DNA from: Chthoniobacterales bacterium
GTDB taxonomy: Bacteria; Verrucomicrobiota; Verrucomicrobiia; Chthoniobacterales; JAATET01
Reading direction: 5' to 3'
Assembly: GCA_041748215.1 (NCBI GenBank)
Contig: JBGTDR010000212.1
Coordinates: forward strand, 1 to 50,011
DNA: 50,011 nt
The notes under the pieces were generated by a model that was not told where the DNA came from, did no database searches, and was given only the letters and a program-made list of their open reading frames with translations. The position numbers were made by a program, and so were the translations under genes. Shown here one piece after another: positions 22,382 to 42,631 of the stretch; the first letter of the stretch is position 1, and every line of letters begins with the position of its first letter.

Positions 22382-23494
22382 TCAGACCGGGACGATGCGC
22401 TTGACCGGGATCGACGCCATAAATTCCAGCTCGCCCGCGGAGTCGAACGCGCATTGGACGGCAGCCGAAGCGTATTCGGCGACTTTCCGGCAAGTAGCGA
22501 GCTCGAGGCCGAGGCTCGTGCGATAGCCGGAGTGGTCGTTGATGGAAAATTGGTACGGCTCGAAAAGCTGCTCGAGGTCGTTTTTGCGCAGCAGGTTCAT
22601 GTGAATGCCGGTCTGCGTGACGTGAAGCTGCAACGCGCTGCCGCCGGCATTATCCTCGAGCGAAATGGTCACGCGCACATATTTCGATTGGTGTGACGCC
22701 ATTGTCGCGAGCTTGCGCGTGATCATGAGCACGGAGCCAGCCGGGCCGATCAATTGCGCGCCGAGCGCTTCGTCTCCCTCCAATTCGACCGCGACGTGTT
22801 TGTCCTGAAATGCTTCGATCATCGGCTGGAGCAAGGATTCGAGCGCGAATTCCTTTTCGAGGCCGGCTGATGCGACGTGCGCCGCACCGATGTAGTCGAC
22901 AATTTCCATCAGGATGTCGTGCAGATGCATGCCCGAATCTTTGATGTCCTGCGCCCACGACGCGTGTTCCGGATGTTCGAGCGTTTGTGAAAGGAGCTCC
23001 GAAAATCCGAGGATGATGTTGAGCGGGGTATTGAACTCGTGGCAGAGCAGCGAAAAGAAATTGTCGTGCACGCTCATGAGCCGCTGGCGCATCTCGGTTT
23101 CACGCAGCGTTTGCTGTTCGTAGACATCGAACCCGTCGGCGACGATTTTGCGCAGTCGCGAAGTTTCAAAGGGCTTGGTGAGATAATTAAATGCCCCATG
23201 ATTGAGCGCCGAGATCGCGCTCTCCATGCTTTCGTAAGCTGTCAGGATAATGACGTTTTGCTGATCCCGAATCTTCTTGAGCCGTTTCAGCGTCTCGATG
23301 CCCGAGATGCCCTCCATGCGGAGGTCCAGAATGACCACCGGAAACGCTTCGCGACGTGAAACTTCGATGGCTTCTTCTCCCGAGGAAACGGCGGTCACTT
23401 CGTAGTTGTCCCGCAGACACATGCTGAGGGTCTGCCGGAGCAGCGGTTCGTCATCGACAACGAGGACTTTGCGGGGCGCGGCTTCGGCAATCAT
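22382..23494 (-). CDS. Response regulator-histidine kinase fusion (REC + HisKA + degenerate HATPase)
   Basis: REC: VLVVDDEPLLRQ...VILDLRMEG...ILTAYES...KPF. HisKA H-box: SLLCHEFNTPLNIILGFSELL. C-terminal ATPase-like region lacks clear N/G boxes. Confidence 0.75.
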   Translation of the reverse strand: MIAEAAPRKVLVVDDEPLLRQTLSMCLRDNYEVTAVSSGEEAIEVSRREAFPVVILDLRMEGISGIETLKRLKKIRDQQNVIILTAYESMESAISALNHGAFNYLTKPFETSRLRKIVADGFDVYEQQTLRETEMRQRLMSVHDNFFSLLCHEFNTPLNIILGFSELLSQTLEHPEHASWAQDIKDSGMHLHDILMEIVDYIGAAHVASAGLEKEFALESLLQPMIEAFQDKHVAVELEGDEALGAQLIGPAGSVLMITRKLATMASHQSKYVRVTISLEDNAGGSALQLHVTQTGIHMNLLRKNDLEQLFEPYQFSINDHSGYRTSLGLELATCRKVAEYASAAVQCAFDSAGELEFMASIPVKRIVPV

Positions 23495-23497
23495 TGT

Positions 23498-24700
23498 TCA
23501 ACAAAGGGTGCGCGCGCCGCGTCGCGGTTTGCGCAGAGTAAGGGGGTCTGCCCCGAGCACTTCGTGAGGCTCACACGGCAGAAAGAACGAAAAACAAAGG
23601 CCTTTGTCATCCTTTACTTTTGCAGTGAGCGAGCCGCCGTGGTGGCGAACGATGAAATAGCAGGAGACGAGGAAGATGCCGAATTCCCGGGGATTGGCAC
23701 CGCGGAGGTTAAACGGATGCAGCAAACTCTCCGGCGACATTTGCGGAGAAATCGGCACCGAGTCTTCAAAATCGATGCGCACTCCGATGGTTTCGCCGTC
23801 GGCCTCCTGCTTGCTGAATCGAATACGCACCGTGCTGTTCGCCGGTAACGAGACGATCTCCTCCGCGATCATGAAACGGAACAATTTCGCAATTTGGTCC
23901 GGCGATCCGGCGATGTTCGGAATCGGGGATTCGGAAATGGTTTCGATCCGGAGCTGCTTCTGATTCCGGATGATGGCGGTGTCGGCCAGCGCCTGATCCA
24001 GCATGGTTTCGAGATTCATCGGACGCAGTTCGCGCTGCGCCGGGGGCACGCTGGCTTGCTCGAGGTCCTTGAGCGTGCGCGCGACGTCGTAGATGTGATC
24101 CCGCACGCTTTTCAGAAAATCCACGGAATAACTGGCGCCGCCGAGATTGCGGTCGAGCAGGTCGTCAACGAGGAACGTCAGCGGGCAAAGCGCGTTGTGA
24201 ATGTAATGGCCGATCTTGGCCGAGATGAGCCCGACATCGTACGCGCGATCTTCCAGCAGGCGTGCCTTAAGTTCGACGATCTTTTGTTCAAAAATCCGGG
24301 CGTCCTGAAGTTGGGTCTGGTGATGATCGAGGGCGCTCTCCAGCGTCTGGCCGAGGTTGTCGAGTTCCCAAGGTTTCGAAACGAATGAATAAACCGCTCC
24401 GGTGTTGATCGCTTCGACCAGAATATCGAGCTCCGAATAAGCGGTGGTCAGGATGCGCACCGTTTGCGGAAATTTGCGCCGGACGGTCTTGAGCAGCTCG
24501 ACTCCGCTCGATTCGGGCATGCGTTGATCGGTCACGATCACGCCGATTTCGTTGCCGTGCACGGCCAGAATGTCGAGCGCCTCGCTTGGCGATACCGCCG
24601 CGTAAATCGTGAAGCGATCTCCGAATGCCCGCGCGAAATACTTCAGGGCCATGGCTTCGTCGTCCACCAGCAGCACGCCTTTTTTGTTCATCGCGTTCAT
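23498..24700 (-). CDS. Response regulator with degenerate histidine-kinase-like output domain
   Basis: REC: VLLVDDEAMALK...VIVTDQRMP...ILTTAYSE...KPW. Then a divergent H-box-like GHYIHNALCPL and an ATPase-like tail. Confidence 0.7.
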   Translation of the reverse strand: MNAMNKKGVLLVDDEAMALKYFARAFGDRFTIYAAVSPSEALDILAVHGNEIGVIVTDQRMPESSGVELLKTVRRKFPQTVRILTTAYSELDILVEAINTGAVYSFVSKPWELDNLGQTLESALDHHQTQLQDARIFEQKIVELKARLLEDRAYDVGLISAKIGHYIHNALCPLTFLVDDLLDRNLGGASYSVDFLKSVRDHIYDVARTLKDLEQASVPPAQRELRPMNLETMLDQALADTAIIRNQKQLRIETISESPIPNIAGSPDQIAKLFRFMIAEEIVSLPANSTVRIRFSKQEADGETIGVRIDFEDSVPISPQMSPESLLHPFNLRGANPREFGIFLVSCYFIVRHHGGSLTAKVKDDKGLCFSFFLPCEPHEVLGADPLTLRKPRRGARTLC

Positions 24701-24744
24701 GATTCGTGTGCGTGTTTTCCCTCTTCGCCCCGGATTGTCAAAAA

Positions 24745-25827
24745 TCAGCGCCTCAGGATGTCCCAGCTGGAAAATTTCTCGTAGAGGCCCGCGATCGCTT
24801 CGTCTGGAGAGTCGGGGGTTTCCGCCGACGGCGCAAAAACAAACTCACGGGGCTCGGCGTCCGGCACGGCGAGCGTCAGGATCACCCGGCCTTGCGCGAG
24901 CGCGGCGGTGGCCACGGCGGCAAATAATTCGAGCGAGACATCGGACGTGTCGCGCTCCAGGAGCAATCCGAAAAGCGTTTTTTCGCACGCGGCGACTTTT
25001 GCCGCCGGTGGGCGGAGCGTGACCTGCAACGACCAGTTGGGATCGTTCGACACGGAAACGTCGATGTCTTCGGCCGTGAGATAATCCATGGTCGCGAGCG
25101 CAGCCGAAAGCGATGCCGTCTCAAACCCGGCGGCAGACTCCGGCAGGCGCGCGTCCAGAATGTCGAGACAGCGAGTGGCGTTGCGGTATTCGTCCCGAAT
25201 GAGTGATCCGATCTCGAAATGTCGATGACTGAAACCGTCAATCCCCTCGATCACCGGGTTGAGAGAATCCGGCAGCGCCGCGATGAAGGCCGGCAGTGCG
25301 CGGCGAAACGCGGATTGCCGCTCCGCACTCCAGCCGCGGCTGGCGAGCATCAGCAACTTGAGCCGGTCGCTGCAGATGATGCGCTGCAGAGTCGTCATCT
25401 TGAGCGCCAGGAGCTGGTCGCGCTCCATCATCACGTGGAAATAATCCGCGGCCCTCTGCAGGACCATGCCGAGCTCGGGGATCTCCCATGGCTTCACCAC
25501 ATATTGATAAATGTGGCCCTTGTTGACGGCCAGGATGGCACTTTCGAGATCGGAGTAGGCCGTCGTGAGAATGCGCACGATCTTGGGAAATGCTTCGCGC
25601 GCGGCCGCCAGCACCTCGGAGCCTTCCATGTTGGGCATGCGCTGATCCGTCAGCACGATGGCAATGTTTTTGGATTCCTGCTGAAGGACTTCGAGGCCGG
25701 CTTCCCCGGACGATGCGGTAAAAATGTTGAACTTTGATCCGTAGGCTCGGCGAAAATACTTCAGCGCCATCTCTTCATCGTCGATGTAGAGGATCCCGGA
25801 TTTGGGCGTTTCGTCGTTGGTCAGCAT
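24745..25827 (-). CDS. Response regulator (REC domain) with ~230-aa C-terminal domain of unknown function
   Basis: ATG at 25827 (MLTNDETPKSGILYIDDEEMALKYF...LTDQRMPNMEG...ILTTAYSD...KPWE). Its start overlaps the upstream kinase stop by 7 nt (ATGCTGA). The ORF-track N-terminal extension is discarded. Confidence 0.7.
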   Translation of the reverse strand: MLTNDETPKSGILYIDDEEMALKYFRRAYGSKFNIFTASSGEAGLEVLQQESKNIAIVLTDQRMPNMEGSEVLAAAREAFPKIVRILTTAYSDLESAILAVNKGHIYQYVVKPWEIPELGMVLQRAADYFHVMMERDQLLALKMTTLQRIICSDRLKLLMLASRGWSAERQSAFRRALPAFIAALPDSLNPVIEGIDGFSHRHFEIGSLIRDEYRNATRCLDILDARLPESAAGFETASLSAALATMDYLTAEDIDVSVSNDPNWSLQVTLRPPAAKVAACEKTLFGLLLERDTSDVSLELFAAVATAALAQGRVILTLAVPDAEPREFVFAPSAETPDSPDEAIAGLYEKFSSWDILRR

Positions 25828-28448
25828 AGTTTGAGTGCCTCTTCGGCCAATGGAAGGTTGATGGTGAAAATTGCTCCGCCTTCGGGCCGGTTCGCCACCC
25901 TCATCGACCCTTGGTGCGATTCCACGATGGTATGACAGATGCTCAATCCCATGCCCATCCCGGAACCGACTTCGCGCGTAGTAAAAAATGGTTCGAAGAC
26001 GCGATTGAGAATGTCTTCGGGGATGCCCGGTCCATTGTCCCAAACTTCGATCGTGACGCGGTCGTCCGCTTCGGCGGTCGCCCGCACGGTGATCGTTTTG
26101 ATGCCGTTGGATGCGTGCGCGGCCAGCGCCTTGCCCGCATTGCTGAGCAGATTGATGAACAAGTGGGTGAGCTGGGTGCGCTGCCCACGGACCACGAGTG
26201 ATGGCGGCAGGTCGACGTCGAGCCGCACGTCTTCGATTTCTTTGCCAATAATTTTCCGCGCTGCCTGAAATACCTCCTCGAGTCGGAAGACCGTTTCGCT
26301 CCCGGGTTTTTCGGGATACGCGAAGTGTTTCAGATCGGTGATCACGTCGCGAATCCGCACCATCCCCTCCTCGATGTCCGCGATGATTTCCATCATCTCC
26401 GGGCCGAGCGAGTCCTTGAACTGTTTGGCAAAACTGATCGCCGTGAGTGTGTAATTGAGCGGGTTGTTGATTTCGTGAAGCAGTCCGGCCGAGAGCGAAC
26501 CGATGGCATTCATCTTCTCGCTCTGGATGAGCATGGTCTCGGTGCGCTGGAGTTTTTCCAGCGTCTCACGGAGTTCGGTGTTGCGCGTGCGAAGATCGCG
26601 CTGGAGGCGGGCGGCGCGCAGAAGGTTCGCGGCGCGCGTTTTCACCTCGATGCTACTGAAGGGTTTGGTGAGGAAATCGTCGGCGCCGGATTGCAGGGCG
26701 TCGATCTTGGATTTTTCGTCGATGCGGGCCGTTAGCAGGATGATTTTGAGATCGCGATTGGAATCGTCGGATCGCAGTTCCCGGCAGACGGACAGACCGT
26801 CCTTTCCGGGCATCATCCAGTCGAGCAGCACGAGCTCGGGTTCGTGCTCTGCGACGAGATCGGAGACGTTGTCGCCGCGTGGTGTCTGGACGATGCGGTA
26901 GTCCTCGGAAAGCAACGACACGATGTATCGGCGCATGTCGTTTTCGTCGTCGGCGACCAGCACGACATTTTCGCCACTGCCGACCATTGGGAGTTCGGTG
27001 TCCGTGCCTTCCGTGTGGCTCCAGCTGCGATCGGCGGAGCGAAACGCCTTCTCGAATGGCTCTTCGGCGCTCGCGAACTCGGGGTCCTGATCAACGGTGA
27101 TCTGGGGGAGCTCCTCGGTGGCCACGCCCGCGGGAAGGCGGATCCGAAACGTGGTTCCCTTGCCGACCACACTTTCAACTTCCAGCGTGCCGCCGTGCTG
27201 TTCGACAAGTTCCTTGGCGAGAGCGAGACCGATGCCGACGCCCTGGTTCTGGTTCGACGCGTTGCTGCGCACCTGGTGAAATCGATCGAAAACCTTGCCA
27301 AGATCCTCTGGCGGAATTCCCACGCCGGTGTCGCTCACCTCGATCGCAGCTCCTTCGGCGTCGCCATTCCATCGCACCGTGATCGCACCACCGGCCGGGG
27401 TGTATTTGATGGCGTTGGTCAAGAGATTGATCAGCACCTTTTCGAGCCGTCCGGAGTCCGCGATCACGGCCACACCGGCATCGCCATCTTCGACGCGCAT
27501 CCGGAGTTGTTTCGAAAGCCCGAGGTGGCGCACGGATTCGACCACACCCTTCACGAAGATTCCCAGCTCGATCGGTTTTTTGCGTAGAATGTCCACGCCT
27601 TGATCCAGGCGGGTCAAATCGAGGAGATCGTTGATCAATTTCAGCAACCGGAGCGTGTTGCGGTGGATCAGAATCAGGCTGTCGTGAACCCGGCCCTCCA
27701 GCAGATCACTGCGACTGAGCAGCGTTTCGACCGGGCCGAGGATAAGAGTGAGCGGTGTGCGCAGTTCGTGGCTGACGTTTGAGAAGAACTGGGTCTTCAA
27801 CCGGTCCATGTCCTGCAGCTTCTGGTTCTGCACGTCGAGCTGGTGGCGCAGGCGGAAATCCTCAAACCGCCCGCGCGTGAGGAAATACGTCGACGTCACG
27901 CAGATGACTGTTGTGAGGATGATGAAAAACAGGTTGCTCGCGAAGATGGAGAGTGAATCCGGTGTCCCAAATCCCGGATGTGCAAAACAGGCGATAAAGT
28001 AGGCAGCGAGTGAGGCCGCGCAGACGAGAGCGGTTTCCCAAAACGTCCACGGCAGCAACGTTGCCATGATCAGAAAGACCGTGTTGAGGCCTGCGTAATA
28101 CGGGGATTTGGCTCCCTCGGTCAGGAAAATCATCAGGCACATCGAGAAATTCACGACCAGCGCCGAAAGCACCCCCAAGACCTTTACGGAGAACAGATTG
28201 CACCGGTCCTTCCCGAAGACCAGCGTCAGCACGAACGCCAGCAGGATCAGATCAACGCCGAGGCGAATTGCGAGAAAGTCGAGGACTCGATCGGGATAGA
28301 CGAAAAATTCCAGCAAACTTCCCAACGGGAAAAAGACCAGGCAGACGAGGTCGGCAACCGTGAGGTAGCGGATGCGCAGCTTGCGGTCGAACTCCCGATA
28401 CGCAGCGTCGAGCTCGCCTTCAGCCGCGATTGCCGTGGCTGTGCTCAT
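25821..28448 (-). CDS. Hybrid sensor histidine kinase with two kinase modules: polytopic N-terminal sensor, HisKA-HATPase, REC, second HisKA(HEINNPL-type)-HATPase
   Basis: 6-7 TM helices. First H-box NVSHELRTPLTL with HATPase (LTNAIKYTP...DTGVGIP...GVGIGLALAKE). REC: VLVADDENDMR...LLDWMMPGKDG...KPF. Second H-box GLLHEINNPLNY with HATPase (NLLSNAGKA...DNGPGIP...GMGMGLSICH). 875 aa. Confidence 0.85.
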   Translation of the reverse strand: MSTATAIAAEGELDAAYREFDRKLRIRYLTVADLVCLVFFPLGSLLEFFVYPDRVLDFLAIRLGVDLILLAFVLTLVFGKDRCNLFSVKVLGVLSALVVNFSMCLMIFLTEGAKSPYYAGLNTVFLIMATLLPWTFWETALVCAASLAAYFIACFAHPGFGTPDSLSIFASNLFFIILTTVICVTSTYFLTRGRFEDFRLRHQLDVQNQKLQDMDRLKTQFFSNVSHELRTPLTLILGPVETLLSRSDLLEGRVHDSLILIHRNTLRLLKLINDLLDLTRLDQGVDILRKKPIELGIFVKGVVESVRHLGLSKQLRMRVEDGDAGVAVIADSGRLEKVLINLLTNAIKYTPAGGAITVRWNGDAEGAAIEVSDTGVGIPPEDLGKVFDRFHQVRSNASNQNQGVGIGLALAKELVEQHGGTLEVESVVGKGTTFRIRLPAGVATEELPQITVDQDPEFASAEEPFEKAFRSADRSWSHTEGTDTELPMVGSGENVVLVADDENDMRRYIVSLLSEDYRIVQTPRGDNVSDLVAEHEPELVLLDWMMPGKDGLSVCRELRSDDSNRDLKIILLTARIDEKSKIDALQSGADDFLTKPFSSIEVKTRAANLLRAARLQRDLRTRNTELRETLEKLQRTETMLIQSEKMNAIGSLSAGLLHEINNPLNYTLTAISFAKQFKDSLGPEMMEIIADIEEGMVRIRDVITDLKHFAYPEKPGSETVFRLEEVFQAARKIIGKEIEDVRLDVDLPPSLVVRGQRTQLTHLFINLLSNAGKALAAHASNGIKTITVRATAEADDRVTIEVWDNGPGIPEDILNRVFEPFFTTREVGSGMGMGLSICHTIVESHQGSMRVANRPEGGAIFTINLPLAEEALKLC

Positions 28449-29842
28449 GCAGGTTTCCGGAAATTCAGAAACACGTTGACGCCGGTTTCATCCGCAAAAA
28501 TTTCGGGATCGGTTCCCTTGGGAGCCAGCGTCGCCATGTGGGCCTCGTCACGATAAATGAGATACCACTCGAGCAGATGCTCGATGCTGTAGCGTTCGGG
28601 ATTGTTCGGGTGGACGTTTGTGGTGACGAGATAGCCACCCGGCCGCACCCAACGGTAATACAGCTGGATTAGGTTGCGGCAGACGTTGTCCGGGAAATAG
28701 TCGAACAGACCCGCGCAATAAATCATGTCGTAAGTCGGCAGAAACCCGTCGGTCTCCTGATGCACGTCCTTGAGCAGCTCATCGATCGACTTTTGGATGA
28801 ACTTGATGACCGGTTTTCGCCCCGAGACTTCCATGGAGGCCGCAGTTCGCTCCTGGGCGTAGGCCAGCGTTTCTTTATTGAAGTCCATCAGATGGATCGC
28901 GCTCTGGCTGGACGAGTCGTGGTTTCGGATGAATCGTTGAATTTCGACCGCGGGTCCGCAGCCAATGGTGAGCACGGTGAAGATGCGTTGTTCGTCCGCA
29001 ACGCGCTCCGCTTCCGCGGAAATGAGCCGCTCCAGAATCACGATGCGATTGCGATGCGCGGCGGATGCGGCCATGTCCACCTGGAGATCATGGAAGATGC
29101 GGGCATAAGTGTTGTTACCAACGGACGGCGACTCCTTGAGCATCATGTTCACCATCTCGTAGTCGCCGGCGTAGCCGAGAGGTTTTGTGAAACACCGGTA
29201 TGCGAACGGCGCGCACAGCATGTAGGGGTGAATTTCCCGGCGCGCGAACGCCTTGTAAACCATCACCTCTTCCTGCGGCACGCGGGCGGCCTCACTTTCG
29301 AACATGGAAATCAGTGTCTGCAGTTTGCCCGCCATCGGCTGTTCGATCGACTCGCGGAACCGCGTCGCTTTCGTTTCGTCGGTATTGACGTTTCCGATGA
29401 TCGCGGTCTCGGCCTCTTCGATCCATCGGCTCGTCTCGGCAAGGAAATTGGCCATCTTGTTGACGGCGAGTTGATACGATTCGGAGAGATTGAGACCTTC
29501 CTCCCATTCGTGGATGAACCGCTCGAGTTCGCTGCCGAGCGCCGGGCCGGGCTCGAGGTGATCGAGATTATTCCACGAGTCGATCAGCGTAACGGAGACG
29601 ATCACCATCAATCCCGTAGTTACAATGCTGGTGACCACACCACGGCCGCGGTAAATGACGCGGTCGCCGCGCATGACGGTGAGTTCCTGAAGGACCTCGC
29701 TGAGCTGGACGAGCGAATAGGGATTGTAGACCTCGAAAACGGCGACGGATCGCGAGATGTGGACCAGGGTGCCGCGACCATTGATTCCCGACGTGTTCGT
29801 GAACGCGACGAGACTGTCTATTCCTGCAATTGCTTTTTCCAC
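28445..29842 (-). CDS. Class I SAM-dependent methyltransferase with N-terminal ~100-aa beta-rich (possibly PilZ-like) domain
   Basis: Motif I VLTIGCGPAVE. Post-I acidic LMDFN. Motif II/III region DMIYCAGLFDYF. The stop overlaps the hybrid kinase start by 4 nt. Confidence 0.65.
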   Translation of the reverse strand: MEKAIAGIDSLVAFTNTSGINGRGTLVHISRSVAVFEVYNPYSLVQLSEVLQELTVMRGDRVIYRGRGVVTSIVTTGLMVIVSVTLIDSWNNLDHLEPGPALGSELERFIHEWEEGLNLSESYQLAVNKMANFLAETSRWIEEAETAIIGNVNTDETKATRFRESIEQPMAGKLQTLISMFESEAARVPQEEVMVYKAFARREIHPYMLCAPFAYRCFTKPLGYAGDYEMVNMMLKESPSVGNNTYARIFHDLQVDMAASAAHRNRIVILERLISAEAERVADEQRIFTVLTIGCGPAVEIQRFIRNHDSSSQSAIHLMDFNKETLAYAQERTAASMEVSGRKPVIKFIQKSIDELLKDVHQETDGFLPTYDMIYCAGLFDYFPDNVCRNLIQLYYRWVRPGGYLVTTNVHPNNPERYSIEHLLEWYLIYRDEAHMATLAPKGTDPEIFADETGVNVFLNFRKPA

Positions 29843-29881
29843 GACTGAGTTCGGCTGATCGGAAGAGTGTTGAGCTTTCGG

Positions 29882-32800
29882 TTATGCACCCCAGAGTTTG
29901 GTCTCCGACATCGAGGCCAGTTGTTGCACAGTCGGGCCTTTGAGAAACTCCATGGCTGAGAAGCTTATGCCCAGCCGTTCCTTAATGCCGAGCCCTAGTT
30001 CGAGCACCAACAGCGAGTCAACGCCCATCTCGTTAAGCTTGCGGTTCATCGGAACATTTTCGGCGGACATTTTCAAAATTTCGGCCAGCACTTCTTGCAA
30101 AAGCAATTGAAGGGCCACAAGTCGCTGCTCTTTGGAAAGATTTGCAAGTTCGGCCCGAATCGCCGAGGCCGGGTTTTCACGACCCTCGTCCAAAATTCGC
30201 TGGTTTTTGAACCTCGGATCCGTAGCGAGCCGCGGGTTCACGTCGTTCCATTGAGCCCAATCCACCTTAAAGACACCGACTTGGGGAACCGGCAGGCGCA
30301 GGACAACCTCGAGGGCGGCGAGGGCCTCGCGATTTGTCAGGCCGGTCACTCCGCCGGAGGCCAGGACACTTCCGAGGCGTTCGTCGCGGGCGACGACTCC
30401 CGTTTCCGCGAGCGCTCCCCAATTCACGGAAGTGGCCGGTAGTCCGCGTTTCCGCAAGGCGTGAGCAAGACCATCGAACACCCCATTGGCGGCCACGTAA
30501 CTGGCCTGACCCCGGTTGCCGATGAGCGACGAGATCGACGAAAAAAGAAGGAAAAAATCGAGGTCCGGTTTGTCCGCAACGGCCGCCGCCAGGTGGAGGG
30601 CTCCAGCGACTTTTGGGGCAAAGACCCGCCGAAAGCTCGTTTCGTTGACCGCCTCGATCATCGCGTCATCGAGGACCATCGCGGCGTGAAGAATCCCGCG
30701 CAGCCGGTACGCTCCGGCATCCGCTTCGGTGACCAACGCCCGGACCTGCTCCTCGTTGGTCACGTCCACTGAGATCGCTTCGACATCAACACCGCGCGCG
30801 GCGATGCGTTCCAGAGCCTCGTTGACGCCTGGAGCATTCCGCCCGGAGCGGCTTGCGAGCAGAATGCGGCCGGCACCATGGCTCGCAAGCCAAAGCGCAC
30901 TCATCAGGCCAAATCCCGACGTACCTCCCGTAACGATGTAACAGCCGTCTGCTGCGACGACCGGATCAACTTCGGGTTTGTCGAAAACGGAAACCTCGCC
31001 GTGCGAAAGATCGACGAGCAATTTGCCAATCTGTTTGCTGCGTGCCATCACGCTGAACGCTTCGTGAAATTCGGGCGCGGAAAATGTCTGGGTTGGCCCA
31101 AGGGTGAATTCGCCATGGGCGAATCCGTCGAAGATCCTCGCCAGCAATTTTTCGACCACGTCGGGACGCTGGTTGGTGAGCTGATCGACGTCCACGGACG
31201 CAAAGATCAGGTTCCGGTTGAATGCCGCCAACGGCAGGCCGTTATCTTCCGCGATATCCTTTTTGCCAACTTCGATGTAACGCCCACCCGCTCGCAGCAG
31301 ATTGAGGCTCACGTGCATGGCCTGTCCGGTCTGGGCACTGATGACGACATCGATTCCTTCGTGCGCCGTGTCTTCGCGAATGCCCTGGCCGAAATCGAGA
31401 TCCCGCGAAGAATAGACGTGATCGATTCCGAGGCTGCGGAGGTAATCCTGTTTTTCGCTCGATCCGGCAGTCGCGAAAATCTCGGCTCCGACCGATTTGG
31501 CGACATCGATTGCCGCCAGTCCGAGCCCACCGGTCCCGTGGTGAATCAAAACGCGCTCGCCTTGTTTCAGGCCGGCGATGTCAATGAGGCCGCGGAATGC
31601 CGCCATGTAAACGATGGGAATGGCGGCCGCTTCCATCCCGAGACTCTCCGGAATTTTGGAAGCAAATCTTTCCGGGATCGTGACGTAAGTCCGATAGCCG
31701 CGTTTGAGAGGTGCGGCCACCCGGTCACCAGGCTGAAAGCGACTGCCATCAGCACAACGCACCACGACCCCCGCGCATTCCATTCCCAACTCCGGGCCGC
31801 AGTAGGTGTTTTCGAGAGCGATCGGATGGAGTCGTCCGTAAATTTTGAGGAGATCTTTATAATTGAGGGCGGCGCTGTGAACGCGCACTTCGATTTCTCC
31901 AGTTCCAGGATCGGTCCTCGCAGCCGGTTCAAAACGCAGCGACTCGAGTTTTCCTTTCGTTCCAAGACGAAGCTCGAGGGGCGTTTCGAGCGACACAGTC
32001 GTGACAGTTTCAGCCGCGGTCTCCGGTGCGGTCGCCTCCAGCACGCATTCGAAACGCCGGATTCCGCGCAACGCGATTTCGCCACGCGATTCCGCGGCGA
32101 TCTCGAGCAGAATTTGATCGAGGTGAGTGTCGGCGGTCGCCGCCGGGAGATCGATCGAACGCACAAACAAAGATTCGCATTCGTTCTGGGCCACCAGGCC
32201 AATGGCGCCGGCGGAAAAACACGCATCGAGCGAAATCTCGTCCTCCGGCAAAACCGCTTTTGCAGATTTCGAGACAATCGTGACGTCGGAGCGTCCGGAA
32301 CGCCCGGCCGCGAGCGCCTGGAAAAAACCAATCAGTCGTTCGTTGCTGAATTGAAGCGACTCGTAGCCGGTCACCTCCCCGGGAAGCGTTGGGCATTCCA
32401 GGATGATGATGTCGCGACGCGAAATCTCCTCAGTCGTCAATCGTTCGATCCACGACTTGGTTCCCATCCCGGACGAAGCGTGATCCCACGATACGACCGC
32501 GGCACCCGGGATCTTTTCTTCGAGTCGTGTGAGAATTGAGCTTTGTGGATTCGTTACAATCAGCACCCGGCTGTCATCGACTGCCCCGGTGGCATTCAAC
32601 GACGATTCGTTCCAGTCGAGCTGGTAAAAGATGCCCGGTTGGTTCTGGCGCGATTCCGTTTCGATGAGCTGGCAGGAAATCCGGCGAGCGTGCGCAAAAA
32701 TGCGCCCCTCGGAATCGAGCAACCAGACGTCTGCAACGATCAGTGTTTCCGTCTGGAGAACGACGCGGCCGAAGGCGTAAAGCTCGGCCGAGTCCGGTCG

Positions 32801-35800
32801 TCCAAAATATTGAAGTTGTTCGATGGAAAACGGAACGAAGAGCTGGTCTCCCTCGGCGCAATAAAGCACGGGCTGCAAGGCGGCATCCATGAGCGTGGGA
32901 TGCAAGGCGTGATCCGACGCATCGAGAACGCTCGTGCCGTCGATTTCTGCGAGAAAACATTTTTGCCCGACCGTGAGTTTCTGGATCGGACGGAAAGTTG
33001 GGCCGTAGCGCAAACTCCGGGTGGCAAGGCGCTCGTACAATGCGTCGATTTCCACATCGGTGGCGCACTCAGATTTCAGCGACGCAAGATCGAGTCGGGC
33101 AACGGGAGGTTGAGTCTGCGGATTGACGCGTCCACGGCAGTGGCGCAGCCGACCCGTCTCGTCACCTTCGATGCGGCTGGAAATGGTGAAGCGGCTCTCG
33201 TCGTCACTCAATTCGGTGACGAGGTATTGAAGCTTCGTGTCATCGACGATGAGCACTTTTTCGAAGCTCACGTTTTCGAGGACGACCGCGGTTTTTTCAT
33301 GAATCCGTGCGCTCAGCGCGATGGCGGCTTCGACGTAGCCCATGCCCGCGAAGACGGTTTGATCCTGCACGCCATGATCGAAAAGAAACGGGAAGTACGC
33401 CCGGTTGATCTCGACTTCCCAGCATGGATTGGGGCTGGGCACGGAGCGATTGAGATAGACCGGACCCGGCAGGCCGAGACGGTCCATTTGGGAAGTCTCC
33501 GATTCGAGCCAGTGTTTTCGTTTCTGCCAGGGATATTGCGGACCGCGGAGAAATTGGCCGCGGTCCGGGGCGAGCGCGGTCCAGTCGAGCGTGTGACCTG
33601 CGCAATACAGTTCGCCGAGCGTGAGCATCAGTCGGGGCAGTTCGGGTTCGGCGCGGCGCAGCGAAACGAACGAAACGGCTTTCCGTTCGAGGTGGGCGGC
33701 GCATTCCTTGATCGAATTTCCCAGCACCGGGTGCGGACCCACTTCCAGCATCGTGGCGAATCCGTCGTCGAACAGAGCCTGGACGGCATCGGCGAATCGC
33801 ACGGGCTGCCGCACGTTGTGCCACCAATAATCGGCTCCCCAATCGCTGGCCGGTACGATGCGGCCATGCGCCGTGGAATAGAGCGGCATCGTGGGTTCTT
33901 TCGGAGCGAGTCCGGCCAGTGCCGCGAGCAGTTCGTCGCGAATCGGGTCCATCTGCGGGCTGTGGTACGCGACCTCGACGCGCAGGAATTTACTAAAAAT
34001 GTCGCGCTCCGTGAGCTCCGCGGCGATTTCCTCGAGCTGCGCTTTGTCGCCGGACAGCGTGACGGCCTCAAAGCTGTTGATCGCTCCAATCGAAACACCG
34101 GTGCGGTTGCCGATGGCGACGAGAGCGTCGGATTCAGCGAGGCCGACGGCGAGCATCGCGCCGAGCCCCGCGGTCGTTTGCTGGAGACGGCTCCGGTGAT
34201 AACTCACGGTGACCGCCTCCTCGAGCGTGTAAACACCCGCGACGTAAGCCGAGGCAACCTCCCCAACACTGTGTCCGATCACGGCCGAAGGGCGGATGCC
34301 GTGCGCTGCCCACCAGCGGGTCAGCGCGACCTGCAGCGCAAAATTTGCGGGCTGCGCAACTTCGGTGCACGCCATGCGCGAGGACGTTTCGTCCGCGAGC
34401 ATGGCATCCTTGAGCGACCATCCCGCGAGGCGGGTGAAGATCATGTCGATCTCGTCGATCGTGGCGGCGATGATCGGCTGGGTCCGGATGAGTTCGTGCC
34501 CCATCGCCCACCATTGCGGTCCCATTCCGGTGTAAATGAAAGCGAGTTCCGCGGCCTTGTCGGCGGGTTCCGTCGAGATCGCGACCGTGGCGTGTGGTTG
34601 TCCGGTCGAGGTAGCGATAAGCTGGTCGCGGAGTTCGTCGGGTGTGGCGGCCACGGCGGCGCAGCGCCATTCGAGGTGGCTGCGCCGATGCGCCGTCGTG
34701 TGGGCAAGGTCGGCGAACGTGCCAGGCAGCGGCTGGCCGAGTTGAAAAGCGTATTTCGCCGCGAGGTCGCGGAGCGCTTCTTCGCTGCGGGCCGAAAGCG
34801 TGATGAGCCGCGGGCGGCCGGGTTCGTCTGGTGCCGGGACGGCGACCCTGGCGGGAGCGGACTCGAGAATGACGTGGGCATTGGTGCCGCCGTAACCGAA
34901 AGAATTCACTCCGATGGTGAGCGTGGATTTTTCTGTGGCGTTCGGCAGCTTCGTCGTCTCGACCGGCACCTTCAGGCAATAATCGTCGAACGGGATCTTC
35001 GGGTTCGGTTTTTTGAAATGCAGGTTTTTCGGTACCTCGCGGGCCTGGAGTGCGCCGATGCCCTTGAGCATGCCGGCCACTCCGGCCGCCGCTTCGAGAT
35101 GACCAACGTTTGTCTTCACCGAGCCAACGACAAGTTTCCGCCCGGGATCGCGCCCCTTCGAAAAATTCACGTGCAGCGCCCGGGCCTCGGCGGGATCGCC
35201 CGCTTGCGTGCCGGTGCCATGAGCCTCGACGTAATCCACCTCGCCCGGAACCAGGTCGGAACGGCGGTAGACGTCGCGCACGAGTTCCTCCTGCGCCACG
35301 GTATTCGGCAGTGAAATGCCGTCGGTGTGGCCATCCTGATTGACGCCCGAGCCGGCAATCACGGCGTGAATCGGGTCACCGTCTGCAAGCGCGCGCACGA
35401 GCGGTTTGATCAAAAAAACTCCCGCGCCCTCGCCGCGTGCGTAGCCCGCCGCGGTTTCGTCGAACGTGTGGCACTCGCCGTGGGGGGACAGGAAGTGTCC
35501 CTTGCTCATCATGATCGGATTGTCCGGCAGCGACATCACGTTCACCCCGCCGGCGATGGCCATTTCCGATTCGCCCGAGCGCAGGCTCTGGCAAGCGCAG
35601 TGGATCGCCACGAGTGATGAGGAACACGCCGTGTCGAGGGTGAAACTCGGGCCGCGTAAATTGAAAACGTGGGAGATGCGGTTCGACAGCACCGTCATCG
35701 TCGCGCCGCCGGGCGAATGCGCGTTCAGCAAATACCGGTTCGCGGGCCGCATCTGGAGGATGAGGTGATCCAGACAAAATCCGCCGATGAAGACCCCGGT

Positions 35801-36178
35801 TGCGGAACCCGAGACGCGCTCGAGCGGCATCCCCGCATCTTCGAATGCCTCCCACGTCACCTCGAGCAACAGGCGCTGCTGCGGATCGATGCAGTTTGCC
35901 TCACGCGGTGAAATCCCGAAGGCGAGAGGATCGAAAAGCTGGATGTCAGCGTCGAGGAAGGCGGCCTTCGGCGCGTAGCTTTTTCCGGGCCGTTTGGGGT
36001 CTGCGTCGAAAAATTGGCGCACGTCCCACCGGTCGGGTTTTACGGAACGCAGCGCGTTGCCACCGCGGAGCAGAAATTTCCAGAATGCCGGGAGCGAATT
36101 TGCGTTCGGTGGCATCCGGCAACCCAGGCCGATGATCGCAAATTTATCTTCCCCGCCAGCCGTTGTGCCCATGTTCAC
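29882..36178 (-). CDS. Type I polyketide synthase, single fully reducing module KS-AT-DH-ER-KR-ACP (no TE)
   Basis: KS: DTACSSSLVA, EAHGTGTQAGDP, NVGHLEAAAG. AT: GHSVGEVASAY. DH: HALHPTLMDAALQ. ER: LIHHGTGGLGLAAIDVAK. KR: VTGGTSGFGLMSALWLASHGAGRILLASRSG. ACP: MGVDSLLVLEL. 2098 aa. Confidence 0.9.
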   Translation of the reverse strand: MNMGTTAGGEDKFAIIGLGCRMPPNANSLPAFWKFLLRGGNALRSVKPDRWDVRQFFDADPKRPGKSYAPKAAFLDADIQLFDPLAFGISPREANCIDPQQRLLLEVTWEAFEDAGMPLERVSGSATGVFIGGFCLDHLILQMRPANRYLLNAHSPGGATMTVLSNRISHVFNLRGPSFTLDTACSSSLVAIHCACQSLRSGESEMAIAGGVNVMSLPDNPIMMSKGHFLSPHGECHTFDETAAGYARGEGAGVFLIKPLVRALADGDPIHAVIAGSGVNQDGHTDGISLPNTVAQEELVRDVYRRSDLVPGEVDYVEAHGTGTQAGDPAEARALHVNFSKGRDPGRKLVVGSVKTNVGHLEAAAGVAGMLKGIGALQAREVPKNLHFKKPNPKIPFDDYCLKVPVETTKLPNATEKSTLTIGVNSFGYGGTNAHVILESAPARVAVPAPDEPGRPRLITLSARSEEALRDLAAKYAFQLGQPLPGTFADLAHTTAHRRSHLEWRCAAVAATPDELRDQLIATSTGQPHATVAISTEPADKAAELAFIYTGMGPQWWAMGHELIRTQPIIAATIDEIDMIFTRLAGWSLKDAMLADETSSRMACTEVAQPANFALQVALTRWWAAHGIRPSAVIGHSVGEVASAYVAGVYTLEEAVTVSYHRSRLQQTTAGLGAMLAVGLAESDALVAIGNRTGVSIGAINSFEAVTLSGDKAQLEEIAAELTERDIFSKFLRVEVAYHSPQMDPIRDELLAALAGLAPKEPTMPLYSTAHGRIVPASDWGADYWWHNVRQPVRFADAVQALFDDGFATMLEVGPHPVLGNSIKECAAHLERKAVSFVSLRRAEPELPRLMLTLGELYCAGHTLDWTALAPDRGQFLRGPQYPWQKRKHWLESETSQMDRLGLPGPVYLNRSVPSPNPCWEVEINRAYFPFLFDHGVQDQTVFAGMGYVEAAIALSARIHEKTAVVLENVSFEKVLIVDDTKLQYLVTELSDDESRFTISSRIEGDETGRLRHCRGRVNPQTQPPVARLDLASLKSECATDVEIDALYERLATRSLRYGPTFRPIQKLTVGQKCFLAEIDGTSVLDASDHALHPTLMDAALQPVLYCAEGDQLFVPFSIEQLQYFGRPDSAELYAFGRVVLQTETLIVADVWLLDSEGRIFAHARRISCQLIETESRQNQPGIFYQLDWNESSLNATGAVDDSRVLIVTNPQSSILTRLEEKIPGAAVVSWDHASSGMGTKSWIERLTTEEISRRDIIILECPTLPGEVTGYESLQFSNERLIGFFQALAAGRSGRSDVTIVSKSAKAVLPEDEISLDACFSAGAIGLVAQNECESLFVRSIDLPAATADTHLDQILLEIAAESRGEIALRGIRRFECVLEATAPETAAETVTTVSLETPLELRLGTKGKLESLRFEPAARTDPGTGEIEVRVHSAALNYKDLLKIYGRLHPIALENTYCGPELGMECAGVVVRCADGSRFQPGDRVAAPLKRGYRTYVTIPERFASKIPESLGMEAAAIPIVYMAAFRGLIDIAGLKQGERVLIHHGTGGLGLAAIDVAKSVGAEIFATAGSSEKQDYLRSLGIDHVYSSRDLDFGQGIREDTAHEGIDVVISAQTGQAMHVSLNLLRAGGRYIEVGKKDIAEDNGLPLAAFNRNLIFASVDVDQLTNQRPDVVEKLLARIFDGFAHGEFTLGPTQTFSAPEFHEAFSVMARSKQIGKLLVDLSHGEVSVFDKPEVDPVVAADGCYIVTGGTSGFGLMSALWLASHGAGRILLASRSGRNAPGVNEALERIAARGVDVEAISVDVTNEEQVRALVTEADAGAYRLRGILHAAMVLDDAMIEAVNETSFRRVFAPKVAGALHLAAAVADKPDLDFFLLFSSISSLIGNRGQASYVAANGVFDGLAHALRKRGLPATSVNWGALAETGVVARDERLGSVLASGGVTGLTNREALAALEVVLRLPVPQVGVFKVDWAQWNDVNPRLATDPRFKNQRILDEGRENPASAIRAELANLSKEQRLVALQLLLQEVLAEILKMSAENVPMNRKLNEMGVDSLLVLELGLGIKERLGISFSAMEFLKGPTVQQLASMSETKLWGA

Positions 36179-36393
36179 TCACTCCGATTCGTTCAATGTT
36201 GACCTAACCGTGGAGCCGCTATTTCCACGCAATCCGTCGCCGGACTTCGTGAAAGACAACCTGCTAACCCCGCACCGCAGTCGGAGATAGCGAACGGCAG
36301 CGCGACGGTCAAGGCCCTGCCACCGCGAGCGGCTGCAGCCTGGCAATTCAGCACGCCGCGAGGTCGCCGCTTGAGGCACGCTTTCGTTCAGCG

Positions 36394-37611
36394 TTACGGT
36401 TGGGCTCCGCGGCGGATCTGCGACCCTTTGAAGCGCAGACTCATCCGGTAGACTTTTTTGATGCGGCAGTCGATTTGGCCGGTCGTGAGGTCGAAGCGGT
36501 CGGGGATTTCGATCCGATGCACGTCCACGGCAGCGTGAAATCCGCGTTCGGAAAAAACGTCGATCAACATGGCGAGCGCGAGCGGGTCGTCGAAAAGCGG
36601 ATCCTCGGAATTGACGTTGGCCTGCCCGGAAATCGCGTGACGCACAACGATCGGCATCATGCGGTCTTCGATGAAGGCGACGACGCGCTGGAGGGTTGCA
36701 GAGTGTTCGATTTCGTAGCTGTCGAGCCGTCGCACGAGGTCCTGTCGGGCGTGAAGGACGATCTTGCTGGCGACCGGCAGGCGGCGGAGTCGGGCGAACG
36801 TCCGCGGGTCGAGCTCGAGCGAGCTTTGGTATTCCAGCTCGCGAACGATGTTTTCCTGCACCAGCTCGAGCGGGGCCTGGGCGTTGATGAAGTGGTAGTG
36901 GAAGATTTCCTTGAGCGAGACGAGGGCGTCGTAGGTCTTTTCCTTGAACACGCGGTAGCGGTTGCGGGCGAGGGCCTCGCTGAGATCGGTGGGGCGTTCC
37001 TCCCACGGTTCGCCGATGCCCGAGCGCCGCACTTCTTCATTGTGTGCGATCACCTCCCGGCCGCGTTTGAGCTGCCGGGCAATGCTTTCCGTCTCGTCCA
37101 CAAAAAGCACCATGATGTGGAAGATCGGCTGTTTGAAAAACATGGCCTCCGGCGAGTCGGAAAACTGCCGGTGCAGCGCGATCATTTCGTCGTAAAGCAT
37201 CTTGAGGCATTCGACCTGGACCTTCGTGCGTGGAAAGCCGTCGAGGATCGCGCCATTCTGCTGCTCGGGTTCGAGCAATTTGCGCAGGAGAATGCCGACG
37301 ACCTCACTGTCGCCCACCATGCCTCCCTGGGCCTTGAGCTGGCGGGCCTCCGGGCTGTCCAGGAGCTGGCTCACGACGATCGGCTCAGCCGTGATGTCGC
37401 GCAGCGCGCGTATGAAATCCGTGTTGGTGCCCTTGCCCGCGCCGGGCGCACCGCCGAGCAGGATCAATTCTTTCGGGAATCGCAGCCGTTCCCGGCCGAA
37501 CTCGCTTTCGAGCTCCTTCCACACACGGTTGAAGATGAGCTGCGCGTCCTTCACCTCGAGGTCGGCGGGTGCGGGTGGACGGACGATCGATTCGGAAGTC
37601 GGGCTGGCCAA
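36394..37611 (-). CDS. Fusion protein: N-terminal adenylate kinase-like NMP-kinase domain plus ~200-aa C-terminal domain of unknown function
   Basis: P-loop LILLGGAPGAGKGT and NMP-binding ILDGFPRT both match the adenylate kinase family. The LID region is short or absent. 405 aa. It lies 74 nt downstream of the EssC-like gene. Confidence 0.6.
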   Translation of the reverse strand: MASPTSESIVRPPAPADLEVKDAQLIFNRVWKELESEFGRERLRFPKELILLGGAPGAGKGTNTDFIRALRDITAEPIVVSQLLDSPEARQLKAQGGMVGDSEVVGILLRKLLEPEQQNGAILDGFPRTKVQVECLKMLYDEMIALHRQFSDSPEAMFFKQPIFHIMVLFVDETESIARQLKRGREVIAHNEEVRRSGIGEPWEERPTDLSEALARNRYRVFKEKTYDALVSLKEIFHYHFINAQAPLELVQENIVRELEYQSSLELDPRTFARLRRLPVASKIVLHARQDLVRRLDSYEIEHSATLQRVVAFIEDRMMPIVVRHAISGQANVNSEDPLFDDPLALAMLIDVFSERGFHAAVDVHRIEIPDRFDLTTGQIDCRIKKVYRMSLRFKGSQIRRGAQP

Positions 37612-37685
37612 GATGCGCGCAGGCTAGCGCCGCGGGATTCGCTCCGTCGAGGCGAACCTCCGGCGGTCTTGGCGTGACTCGATGC

Positions 37686-41588: not shown

Positions 41589-41754
41589 CCATCACTGCCG
41601 TGGTTTTGGCGAGCTGCTGAGGCAGCGCGGCCAGGTAGCGGTGTTCGAATTCCAGCGCCTTGGCATCGCGCCAGTGGACGCGCGCTTCCTGCCACTGGGC
41701 GGCGAGATCCTTGGCGGACTGCTCGAGATTCGACGCTCCGGCTTTGACGCTCAT
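41542..41754 (-). CDS. Small helical protein (70 aa), WXG100-like partner
   Basis: ATG at 41754 overlaps the stop of the 171-aa gene (ATGA). MSVKAGASNLEQSAKDLAAQWQEARVHWRDAKALEFE.... The ORF-track N-terminal extension is rejected as low-complexity Arg/Pro-rich. Confidence 0.45.
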   Translation of the reverse strand: MSVKAGASNLEQSAKDLAAQWQEARVHWRDAKALEFEHRYLAALPQQLAKTTAVMDDLDALLRRIRRDCE

Positions 41755-42266
41755 GCAGCTTCCTCCGTGTTCAATGCTGGTGTTTGCGGTGGTGGCGCGG
41801 TCTCGGCGTACTCGTCGAGGTGACGCTGCGCCTGCGCGAGAAACGTCACGGCGGACGGTAAATCCTGGTCGAGCACGTTCCGCAGGGCGTTCATTTGTTT
41901 GACGAGGGGATCGACCACGACGTCGAAGTCGCGGGTCCAGCGCCGGACCATGCGCAACTTTTCTCCGGCTTCGGCGAGTGCCCGTTTGGCATGGTGCACG
42001 GCGGCCTGCTGGGCGGTCGTGGTGTCGCGGAGTGAAGAAATGCGGGCACTCAAAAGCTCTTGCTCGGCCTGGTCGAGCGTCCGCTGCCAGCGCCGAATTT
42101 CGCCTTCCCAATACAGGCGTTGATCCGTTTGCAACCACAACCGGGTGCGCCGTGCTTCGTCCGTGGCGGCGTCGAGTGCGTGCCGCGATCGCGACAAAAA
42201 AACGATGAGATTTGCACGAAAACGTTCAAGCGCGTCCAGCGAGGTGACTCTGGCGTCGGTAGGCAT
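41751..42266 (-). CDS. Helical/coiled-coil protein (171 aa), possible LXG/targeting-factor-like T7SS accessory
   Basis: All-helical heptad-rich sequence. It sits between the WXG100-like gene (9 nt gap) and the 70-aa gene (ATGA overlap). Confidence 0.45.
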   Translation of the reverse strand: MPTDARVTSLDALERFRANLIVFLSRSRHALDAATDEARRTRLWLQTDQRLYWEGEIRRWQRTLDQAEQELLSARISSLRDTTTAQQAAVHHAKRALAEAGEKLRMVRRWTRDFDVVVDPLVKQMNALRNVLDQDLPSAVTFLAQAQRHLDEYAETAPPPQTPALNTEEAA

Positions 42267-42275
42267 TTCCGAAGG

Positions 42276-42548
42276 TCAGCGCTGATCCAGGTATTGCTCG
42301 ATGCGCTGGGCTTTGCGCAAGAGGTACGGCGTGTGTTTTTCCGAGGTCGCGACAAATTTTTTGAGGACCTTCATCGTCGCAATGAATTCCTCGGCAAATT
42401 TTTCATGTTCCTGATCCTGCCAGGTTCCGCCGAGGGCGGCGAACCGCGCCTGCAGCGACGAGCCGCGCGCCTGCAGGTCATCGTTGAACCGCTTGAGTTC
42501 GGTTGCAAATCGCCGGACTTCCTCCGGATCCATGATTGCCTGCGCCAT
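42276..42548 (-). CDS. WXG100-family (EsxA/YukE-like) small helical hairpin protein
   Basis: 90 aa. N-terminal MDPEEVRRFATELKRF and central GTWQDQEHEKFAEEF parallel B. subtilis YukE (TPEELRAMAKQY ... SMWEGASSEAFADQY), with Gly replaced by Asp. First gene of the operon ending in the EssC-like ATPase. Confidence 0.55.
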   Translation of the reverse strand: MAQAIMDPEEVRRFATELKRFNDDLQARGSSLQARFAALGGTWQDQEHEKFAEEFIATMKVLKKFVATSEKHTPYLLRKAQRIEQYLDQR

Positions 42549-42631
42549 AATATTGGGTCGTCTTTCCTGGTGGGCTGCCTTGGTGCCCGAAAGATACGCG
42601 TCATGCGCTCAGGAGCAACCCTGCGGCCGCT

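Follow-up and report, generated by a model that had tools for sequence, protein, structure and literature searches.

The window analysed here is a stretch of 50,011 nucleotides (nt) from a Chthoniobacterales bacterium (contig JBGTDR010000212.1), and the gene under study encodes a type I polyketide synthase (PKS). On the minus strand, this gene is followed by five shorter ones, which encode a PhcB-like methyltransferase (MT), a PhcS-like hybrid sensor kinase, and three response regulators named here RR1 (PhcQ-like), RR2 and RR3 (both PhcR-like). Judged from gene order in related genomes, the six genes (22382-36172) constitute one operon, and this operon, not the 25-kb co-oriented stretch in which it lies, is the predicted functional unit, since the six genes stay together while their surroundings change. 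An earlier reading of the same DNA (the original prediction) had described the PKS as a stand-alone, fully reducing, iterative enzyme with a terminal acyl carrier protein (ACP), neither thioesterase (TE) nor reductase (R) domain, and intact catalytic motifs in all six domains. Pfam searches and motif alignments bear out this description, and the neighbours named with it are present and co-oriented, all of them on the minus strand.

The open reading frame (ORF) at 29882..36178 is uninterrupted, as had been stated, and its strand is corrected here to minus; it comprises 2098 codons counted from the first GTG. The start is also revised: the true start codon is probably the ATG at 36172, which has GGAG in front of it, and the first two codons of the ORF would be untranslated. 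The protein counted from this ATG has 2096 aa and is 100% identical to database protein P0001. The 221-nt intergenic region before the gene (36173..36393) is the presumed promoter region of the operon, as judged from gene spacing. A promoter and terminator scan of positions 21800-37800 returned sites no commoner than in shuffled sequence, and no significant sigma-70-like site was found in 36173..36393.

Pfam domains, an alignment of 93 orthologues and an alignment with mycocerosic acid synthase (MAS) assign the product of 29882..36172 to the iterative, fully reducing type I PKSs, with the domain order ketosynthase (KS), acyltransferase (AT), dehydratase (DH), enoylreductase (ER), ketoreductase (KR) and ACP; no TE or R domain was found in it by Pfam. 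All domains lie on the minus strand, and their limits in residues are counted along the 2098-codon ORF. The KS is at 34859..36142 (aa 13-440, with the Pfam KS match at 13-388), and a KS-AT linker comes between it and the AT; the AT is at 33695..34540 (aa 547-828); the DH, of the PKS type, at 32645..33448 (aa 911-1178); the ER at 31013..31903 (aa 1426-1722); the KR at 30407..30946 (aa 1745-1924); and a single C-terminal ACP at 29912..30100 (aa 2027-2089).

Catalytic residues, numbered as in P0001, are invariant or nearly so across the 93 orthologues, which have 2000-2200 aa each. In the KS, the Cys-His-His triad (C183, H318, H358) and the motifs DTACSSS, EAHGTGT and NxGHxE are found in 93/93. 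The AT presents S635 within GHSVGE, which is invariant except for V636 (91/93), and an invariant VAYHS. The catalytic His and Asp of the DH (H933 and D1096) are each present in 93/93, and the motif HxxxGxxxxP reads HxxxDxxxxA here. The NADPH motif of the ER, HHGTGGLG, is intact in the window PKS, and a few orthologues deviate from it. In the KR, TGGTSGFG and LDD are conserved, and L1834, D1836, Y1892 and N1896 each occur in all 93 sequences, as does the phosphopantetheine serine of the ACP (S2053, in GVDSL).

The AT specificity and KR stereochemistry, whose calling the original prediction had proposed, were derived from these motifs. Aligned methylmalonyl-specific ATs of DEBS show GHSQGE and YASH where the window AT has GHSVGE and VAYH, and both diagnostic positions differ. 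Under the AT motif rules, motifs of the window type predict malonyl extender units. Because of this difference from the methylmalonyl motifs, the AT is expected to be of the malonyl type, and the chain, hence, to be unbranched. The LDD motif makes the KR B-type, which corresponds to a 3R-hydroxy configuration and matches the signals of Phc quorum sensing, (R)-methyl 3-hydroxymyristate ((R)-3-OH-MAME) or (R)-methyl 3-hydroxypalmitate ((R)-3-OH-PAME) (PMC11298618). A KR of this type is compatible with an interception of the chain at the hydroxy stage, and is no proof of it.

The closest relatives of the PKS, with 57-63% identity (nearest, 63%), belong to Terrimicrobiaceae, Chthoniobacterales and 'Spartobacteria', which fits an uncultured bacterium of the Chthoniobacterales type as the source of the window. 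Identity drops to about 49% for the relatives in Puniceicoccaceae and Coraliomargarita. The closest solved structure is that of Mycobacterium tuberculosis MAS (9d2y), aligned over residues 13-2088 versus 8-2093 (E 1.4e-296).

The second gene (28445..29842, minus strand) encodes the MT, an S-adenosylmethionine (SAM)-dependent methyltransferase of 465 aa. Many of its orthologues bear the JGI name 'extracellular factor (EF) 3-hydroxypalmitic acid methyl ester biosynthesis protein', which we take to be PhcB, the signal synthase of phc quorum sensing in Ralstonia solanacearum. The MT is 42% identical to a Cupriavidus PhcB orthologue over residues 8-458 (pairwise, E 1.5e-130) and 43% identical to a Paraburkholderia PhcB-family protein, with about 97% of the MT length aligned; the homology takes in the N-terminal, non-methyltransferase half. 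It is also the best-conserved gene of the cluster, with 60-74% identity in Chthoniobacterales and Puniceicoccaceae, 51-56% in Opitutales, and 87% to the nearest MT. The gene had earlier been singled out as the only candidate tailoring gene, 39 nt downstream of the PKS. The distance and the place as sole candidate partner stand, but its function is better read as that of a PhcB-type signal synthase, and the MT is proposed here both as signal synthase and as off-loading partner of the PKS.

A confident AlphaFold model of the MT, made with 65 family members (pLDDT 84.7), consists of a six-stranded beta-barrel (residues 10-86), a long bundle of helices (100-283) and a methyltransferase domain with Rossmann fold (288-462). 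The barrel looks PilZ-like, yet lacks the motifs for binding cyclic di-GMP (c-di-GMP). In the Foldseek search of the PDB, the catalytic half alone was matched (TMq < 0.4) and no solved structure matched the entire MT; the top matches include PKS methyltransferases that act on carrier-bound chains, namely AprA MT2 and the C-methyltransferases of CurJ, citrinin and DszA. A sequence search of the PDB gave marginal matches alone, CheR (E 0.017) among them; a CheR-like role in protein methylation was set aside because the homology to PhcB extends over the entire protein, N-terminal domains included. NCBIfam, which has no PhcB or PhcS model, returned only marginal BioC/CpaM matches (E about 1e-3). 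Within the N-terminal half, the PhcB mutation R22C is functional, and the residue is conserved in Ralstonia, Cupriavidus and Paraburkholderia (PMC6989110); its position corresponds to the near-invariant R23 of the window MT.

A census of the PhcB family in 1.84 billion representatives yielded 1,177 clusters at 50% identity (E <= 1e-30), and most of the best matches are full-length. Some distant members (P0450, P0475 and P0493) have an extra N-terminal REC domain or a bona fide PilZ domain. These fusions suggest that signal synthesis itself may be under phosphorylation or c-di-GMP control in some lineages, and because of them the family appears to be repeatedly wired into signalling. Separately, an outer-membrane channel of the FadL/Toluene_X type, which serves hydrophobic compounds, is encoded divergently next to the PKS in locus L087 (1149-2438) and directly next to a PhcB-family gene in locus L090 (2511-3770), and could provide an outer-membrane route for a hydrophobic signal. 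Contexts of MT-family genes at middle distance were uninformative: the contig of L089 ends just upstream of the MT gene and L090 has only 5.5 kb.

The third gene (25821..28448, minus strand) encodes the hybrid sensor kinase, of 875 aa, with a MASE8 domain, a HisKA-HATPase core, a REC domain and a second HisKA-HATPase core of the PhcS type. The MASE8 membrane domain is polytopic, with no large periplasmic loop. Pfam did not detect it in the window kinase itself; it is seen in orthologues and by profile-profile alignment, in which kinase residues 10-204 align with PhcS 3-192 (hhalign probability 99.9%, E 1e-31, 190 columns). The kinase matches PhcS twice, over residues 12-439 with 28% identity and over residues 614-869, against PhcS 187-443, with 40%. 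In the best global profile alignment with PhcS, the path runs from MASE8 directly into the second kinase core, and the protein is hence predicted to be a PhcS with an inserted HisKA-HATPase-REC unit. Its H658 lies in LLHEINNP, and the box LLHE[IV]NNP also holds the autophosphorylated His of PhcS (H230 in Ralstonia; 231/233 in orthologues). Throughout the relay, about 21 orthologous clusters show no change in any phospho-acceptor His or Asp or in either ATP-binding core, and the phosphorelay is therefore predicted to be functional.

The remaining three genes, on the same strand, encode the regulators. RR1 (24745..25827; 360 aa from the ATG at 25827) joins a REC domain to a non-DNA-binding C-terminal domain; its REC is 41% identical to PhcQ (E 2e-39), with D61 and K112 invariant, and PhcQ is its top whole-protein profile match. 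RR2 (23498..24700; 400 aa) has a REC domain 44% identical to that of PhcR, followed by a degenerate histidine-kinase-like domain that matches the PhcR C-terminus with a probability of 95.9%. RR3 (22382..23494; 370 aa), the last gene of the block, presents a REC domain, a HisKA domain (H152) and a weak HATPase; it is 28% identical to PhcR over 187 aa, and its C-terminal domain match has a probability of 96.6%. No DNA-binding domain was found in any operon protein. A LysR gene was likewise not found in the conserved block or in the scanned window ORFs, in which no search was aimed at a PhcA-like regulator.

From these homologies, the five genes behind the PKS very probably represent a Phc-type (phcBSRQ-like) module. 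The phc operon has the order phcB-phcS-phcR-phcQ, with PhcS as the sensor kinase; PhcB has 464-468 aa, PhcR has 368-374 aa with a receiver and a kinase domain, and PhcQ has 336-337 aa with a receiver and no DNA-binding site (PMC8578825). The window MT is of the same three-domain type as PhcB and falls within its size range, and its 42-43% identity extends over the full length; the MASE8 kinase stands directly behind it, with the same H-box as PhcS; and the regulators, of the REC plus kinase-like and of the REC-only types, without DNA-binding domains, correspond in size and architecture to PhcR and, less clearly, to PhcQ. In the reference beta-proteobacterial operons, from Paraburkholderia and Cupriavidus, PhcB-family proteins head an array of MT, kinase and two regulators; in Cupriavidus these are an MT of 463 aa, a MASE8-HisKA-HATPase kinase of 443 aa, a REC-HisKA-HATPase protein of 381 aa and a REC protein of 332 aa. 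The window module differs from them in coming from another phylum, Verrucomicrobia, and in having two PhcR-like genes, with the PhcQ-like gene ahead of both. It also has the 2096-aa PKS before the phcB-like gene, whereas no proteobacterial operon examined does, and none was found in either reference operon.

For the synteny test, all window ORFs were compared with 79 loci in which a PKS relative is encoded. Directly behind the PKS, the five downstream genes recur in identical order in 17 of the 21 verrucomicrobial loci (RR3 is present in the same proportion), and the other four keep at least PKS-MT-kinase-RR1; in the verrucomicrobial loci long enough to judge (16/16), the MT, kinase and regulators come after the PKS. 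The five-gene block was found in nine loci of Chthoniobacterales, four of Puniceicoccaceae and three of Opitutales, besides one Opitutales locus that is cut and incomplete. The six genes travel together over at least three verrucomicrobial lineages. The same six were found in two cultured species, Terrimicrobium sacchariphilum and Coraliomargarita algicola; cultured carriers also include Puniceicoccus vermicola and Thalassobacterium spp., which makes experiments feasible. Reached from the MT side, the PKS is immediately upstream in 4/4 loci (L084 to L087), and no verrucomicrobial MT without a PKS was found among these contexts. For 35 further pairs of PKS and MT clusters, the longest contig has the same size in both homology lists.

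Spacing in the window is tight: the PKS-MT gap of 39 nt is followed by an MT-kinase overlap of 4 nt, a kinase-RR1 overlap of 7 nt, an RR1-RR2 gap of 44 nt and an RR2-RR3 gap of 3 nt. Across the verrucomicrobial loci, the PKS-MT gaps are 9-150 nt as called, and the PKS is always first in the operon. The link that had been suspected between the PKS and the kinase operon is upheld by this conserved synteny, with the phosphorelay better read as a cognate receptor pathway. The orthologues are consistently part of a known type of cluster, a case which the original prediction had named as speaking against it, but this cluster is, unexpectedly, a phcBSRQ-type quorum-sensing module and not one for lipids or polyunsaturated fatty acids (PUFA). 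In L084 (3460-9855), the PKS is split into a KS-AT-DH protein (1132 aa) and an ER-KR-ACP protein (954 aa) with a 132-nt gap, the MT and MASE8 kinase still standing behind; the split may be genuine and give a two-subunit variant, or else be an artefact of the assembly or of a frameshift.

The synteny has a different outcome for the upstream side. The original prediction had placed the PKS in a 25-kb envelope or secreted-lipid system together with glycosyltransferase genes (GT-C/GT2) and a module resembling a type VII secretion system (T7SS), with an FtsK/EccC-like ATPase, that would make an alkyl or glycolipid-type envelope lipid. These genes are co-oriented in the window, and mono-modular PKSs or fatty acid synthases do make envelope or capsule lipids elsewhere, as in WcbR/RkpA and MAS (PMC3908369). 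The upstream genes, however, accompany the PKS in no related locus: the adenylate-kinase-like gene (36394-37611) and the FtsK/EccC-like gene (37686-41588) have 0 counterparts in the 79 loci, and the GT2 gene and the genes beyond 22382 have no match there either. Upstream of the PKS nothing is common between lineages, and reciprocal searches from three relatives found nothing else conserved on either flank. The EccC-like match reaches 115.7 bits where the family cut-off is 509, and the conserved partners of the PKS are signalling genes. An envelope-lipid system of this extent is largely refuted by synteny and we regard it as very improbable.

Among known PKSs, the window enzyme resembles the mycobacterial MAS/Pks2/PpsC group, with which it shares a single KS-AT-DH-ER-KR-ACP module without TE and an end-to-end alignment. 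It differs in its AT motifs, which are not of the methylmalonyl type; in a conserved block without a FadD/FAAL loader or a PapA-type acyltransferase; and in its partners, a methyltransferase and a phosphorelay. Strict membership of the MAS family was rejected on the AT, on the absence of FadD/PapA neighbours, and on the score of the top NCBIfam model, MAS-like Pks2 (NF041183), of 1220 bits versus a cut-off of 2400. The PUFA and heterocyst-glycolipid synthases (PfaA/HglE) have as hallmarks tandem ACPs, a pair of KS and chain length factor (KS-CLF), a FabA-type DH and a multi-gene pfa/hgl cluster. Assignment to them was rejected since the window PKS has a single ACP, a PKS-type DH and no pfa/hgl neighbours, and scores 339.9 bits with the PfaA model TIGR02813, whose cut-off is 1010.

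Stand-alone KS-AT-DH-ER-KR-ACP enzymes are also represented by SwfA/SupA of sponge symbionts and by WcbR/RkpA, with unknown or lipid products and a dedicated downstream processing enzyme (PMC3908369). The partners of SwfA are a reductase-sulfotransferase (swfB, R+ST) and a radical SAM protein (swfC), and its AT motifs are IAFH/GHSSGE and QCALVEL (PMC3908369); both partners are absent beside the window PKS, whose motifs are VAYH/GHSVGE and QPANFALQVAL. Membership of the Swf/Sup group was rejected on these two grounds.

In other phyla, single-module PKSs without TE that match the window PKS in length and architecture, at 35-44% identity, are encoded immediately before a trans-acting off-loading enzyme. 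This enzyme is an aminotransferase of the alpha-oxoamine-synthase type in 12 loci, a condensation (C) domain of nonribosomal peptide synthetases (NRPS) in five and a thioester reductase in two; no MT was found in these loci. In Verrucomicrobia, the off-loading slot is always occupied by the PhcB-like gene. The hosts of the aminotransferase-paired PKSs (class I/II aminotransferases) include Planctomycetota, Nocardia, Cellvibrio, Methylobacter and Chamaesiphon, and this pairing may make amino-lipid or alpha-hydroxyketone-like products.

A fused counterpart was found on the Enterobacter ludwigii IncFII plasmid NZ_CP134637.1 (L083, 7078-10215), where the last protein of a multi-protein PKS has the order KS-ACP-(PhcB-like region). 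The latter (Methyltransf_20/25, aa about 816-1029) is 26% identical to the MT over MT residues 40-436, and is possibly a terminal methyl-ester-forming domain. The Enterobacter PKS differs from the window system in that the MT-like region is fused in cis, the last protein has no in-cis AT, and kinase or regulator genes are lacking beside it. Tn3 transposase and recombinase genes border the cluster, which marks it as a mobile PKS.

Our preferred reading, to which we give a probability of roughly 0.6, is that an iterative, malonyl-fed PKS builds a chain from which the PhcB-like MT makes a diffusible methyl ester, to be sensed by the MASE8 kinase relay. The PKS, loaded through its malonyl-type AT, would iteratively build an unbranched acyl-ACP. 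The MT would turn this chain into a fatty-acid methyl ester and in doing so empty the TE-less PKS; interception might take place while the chain still has the (3R)-hydroxy group made by the B-type KR. The ester, a hydrophobic molecule, would diffuse out, and the kinase would detect it within the membrane through its MASE8 domain. In Ralstonia, the Phc output runs via the LysR-type master regulator PhcA; here too, the REC/kinase relay would hand the signal on to an output whose gene lies outside the operon, in which no protein has a DNA-binding domain. If synthase and receptor are transcribed together, the positive feedback typical of quorum sensing would result.

The step on which this reading depends is that the PKS supplies the acyl chain of the signal, which we consider somewhat more probable than its contrary. 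We infer that the PKS feeds the MT because the PKS has no TE, no TE (nor a phosphopantetheinyl transferase) was found in the window ORFs, and the MT occupies the off-loading slot; and further because the Enterobacter assembly line ends in KS-ACP-(PhcB-like MT) and the MT fold resembles methyltransferases that act on ACP-bound chains of PKSs.

Several points weigh against this reading. Beta-proteobacterial PhcB works without a PKS and the MT family needs none, which would allow the PKS to be an output regulated together with the module. SAM-dependent O-methylation works on free carboxylates, and sequence, Pfam and fold searches revealed in the MT no hydrolytic domain that would open the thioester. 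A fully reducing module normally passes the 3-hydroxy stage, and what it makes might be a saturated ester without the hydroxy group, or another compound. On the side of the signalling proteins, the window kinase has one HisKA-HATPase-REC unit more than PhcS, inserted after MASE8 and before the PhcS-type core, and the C-terminal domain of RR1 matches PhcQ weakly, with 89% probability over 42 columns. Finally, the Phc homology was established via Cupriavidus and Paraburkholderia orthologues and the source annotation, not with Ralstonia proteins directly; Ralstonia PhcB is absent among the matches listed.

The first of these points leads to the main rival explanation, in which the Phc-like module is self-contained, the MT uses intermediates of fatty acid synthesis as in Ralstonia, and the PKS, as an output transcribed with the module or regulated by it, supplies a lipid or secondary metabolite under density control and not the precursor of the signal. 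The canonical phcBSRQ operons without PKS speak for it, as does the full reducing loop of the PKS, given that the known signals are 3-hydroxy esters, and so does the control of PKS/NRPS products by Phc in Ralstonia (PMC9197120). The arrangement of the locus argues the other way, with the PKS always first and directly before the MT at 9-150 nt, without a release enzyme of its own, the MT in the slot that off-loaders take in related PKS loci, and no verrucomicrobial MT lacking a PKS among the MT-side contexts. We consider a self-contained module rather unlikely.

The membrane domain of the kinase allows another alternative, in which the PKS and MT make a membrane-resident lipid whose level the MASE8 kinase monitors, within the same cell, to adjust envelope physiology. 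A polytopic MASE8 without large periplasmic loop would suit such a lipid sensor, and the distant MT relatives fused to REC or PilZ suggest intracellular control. Fatty-acid methyl esters, on the other hand, are volatile and diffusible. The homologous PhcS/PhcB pair is, by experiment, a diffusible-signal system (PMC8578825, PMC11960443), and we hold a cell-autonomous sensor to be improbable.

If a homologous module with a PKS of its own is conserved across the Verrucomicrobia of soil, freshwater and sea, it offers a specific candidate for cell-cell signalling, open to experiment, in a phylum that is abundant and poorly understood. It would also give a likely role to a very common kind of 'orphan' single-module PKS, which genome mining reports as an unknown polyketide cluster, and it would suggest that TE-less iterative PKSs are emptied by whichever trans-acting enzyme adjoins them, here a methyltransferase. 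To our knowledge, Phc signalling has been studied almost solely as the virulence switch of the wilt pathogen Ralstonia solanacearum. Full-text searches found no paper in which PhcB is connected with Verrucomicrobia or with a PKS beside it; the Phc orthologues named in the literature found are solely those of Ralstonia, Cupriavidus and Paraburkholderia, and one relevant paper was found for MASE8. What is new here is a Phc-type module with a dedicated MAS-like PKS and an extended, fused sensor kinase, conserved in a different phylum.

A broader proposal, which we put forward tentatively, is that of a phylum-wide verrucomicrobial quorum sensing with a PKS-made methyl ester as autoinducer and the PhcB-type MT doubling as the chain-release enzyme of the PKS. 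In that case, the off-loading route would be one undescribed for type I PKSs, the system would be the first for cell-cell signalling defined in Verrucomicrobia, and Phc signalling would be ancient and modular, no peculiarity of Ralstonia and its relatives.

Other genes of the window were annotated in passing. The plus strand at 14434-19503 encodes a protein of 1689 aa in which DUF3686 (608 bits; 'ATPase involved in DNA repair') occurs together with DUF7902 and an AAA ATPase domain; this is taken as the real gene because the antisense ORFs 14335-17508 and 17554-19284 have no Pfam match, and the product could be a defence or repair ATPase. Directly upstream of the operon, the minus strand at 36394-41588 encodes a 1300-aa FtsK/SpoIIIE ATPase, whose EccC-like match, as given above, is below threshold, and then a 405-aa adenylate-kinase-like protein with a long C-terminal extension. 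At 46234-47112 (minus strand), a NYN nuclease domain is fused to an OST-HTH/LOTUS RNA-binding domain, and several ORFs around this gene, in 41542-49428, have no Pfam match.

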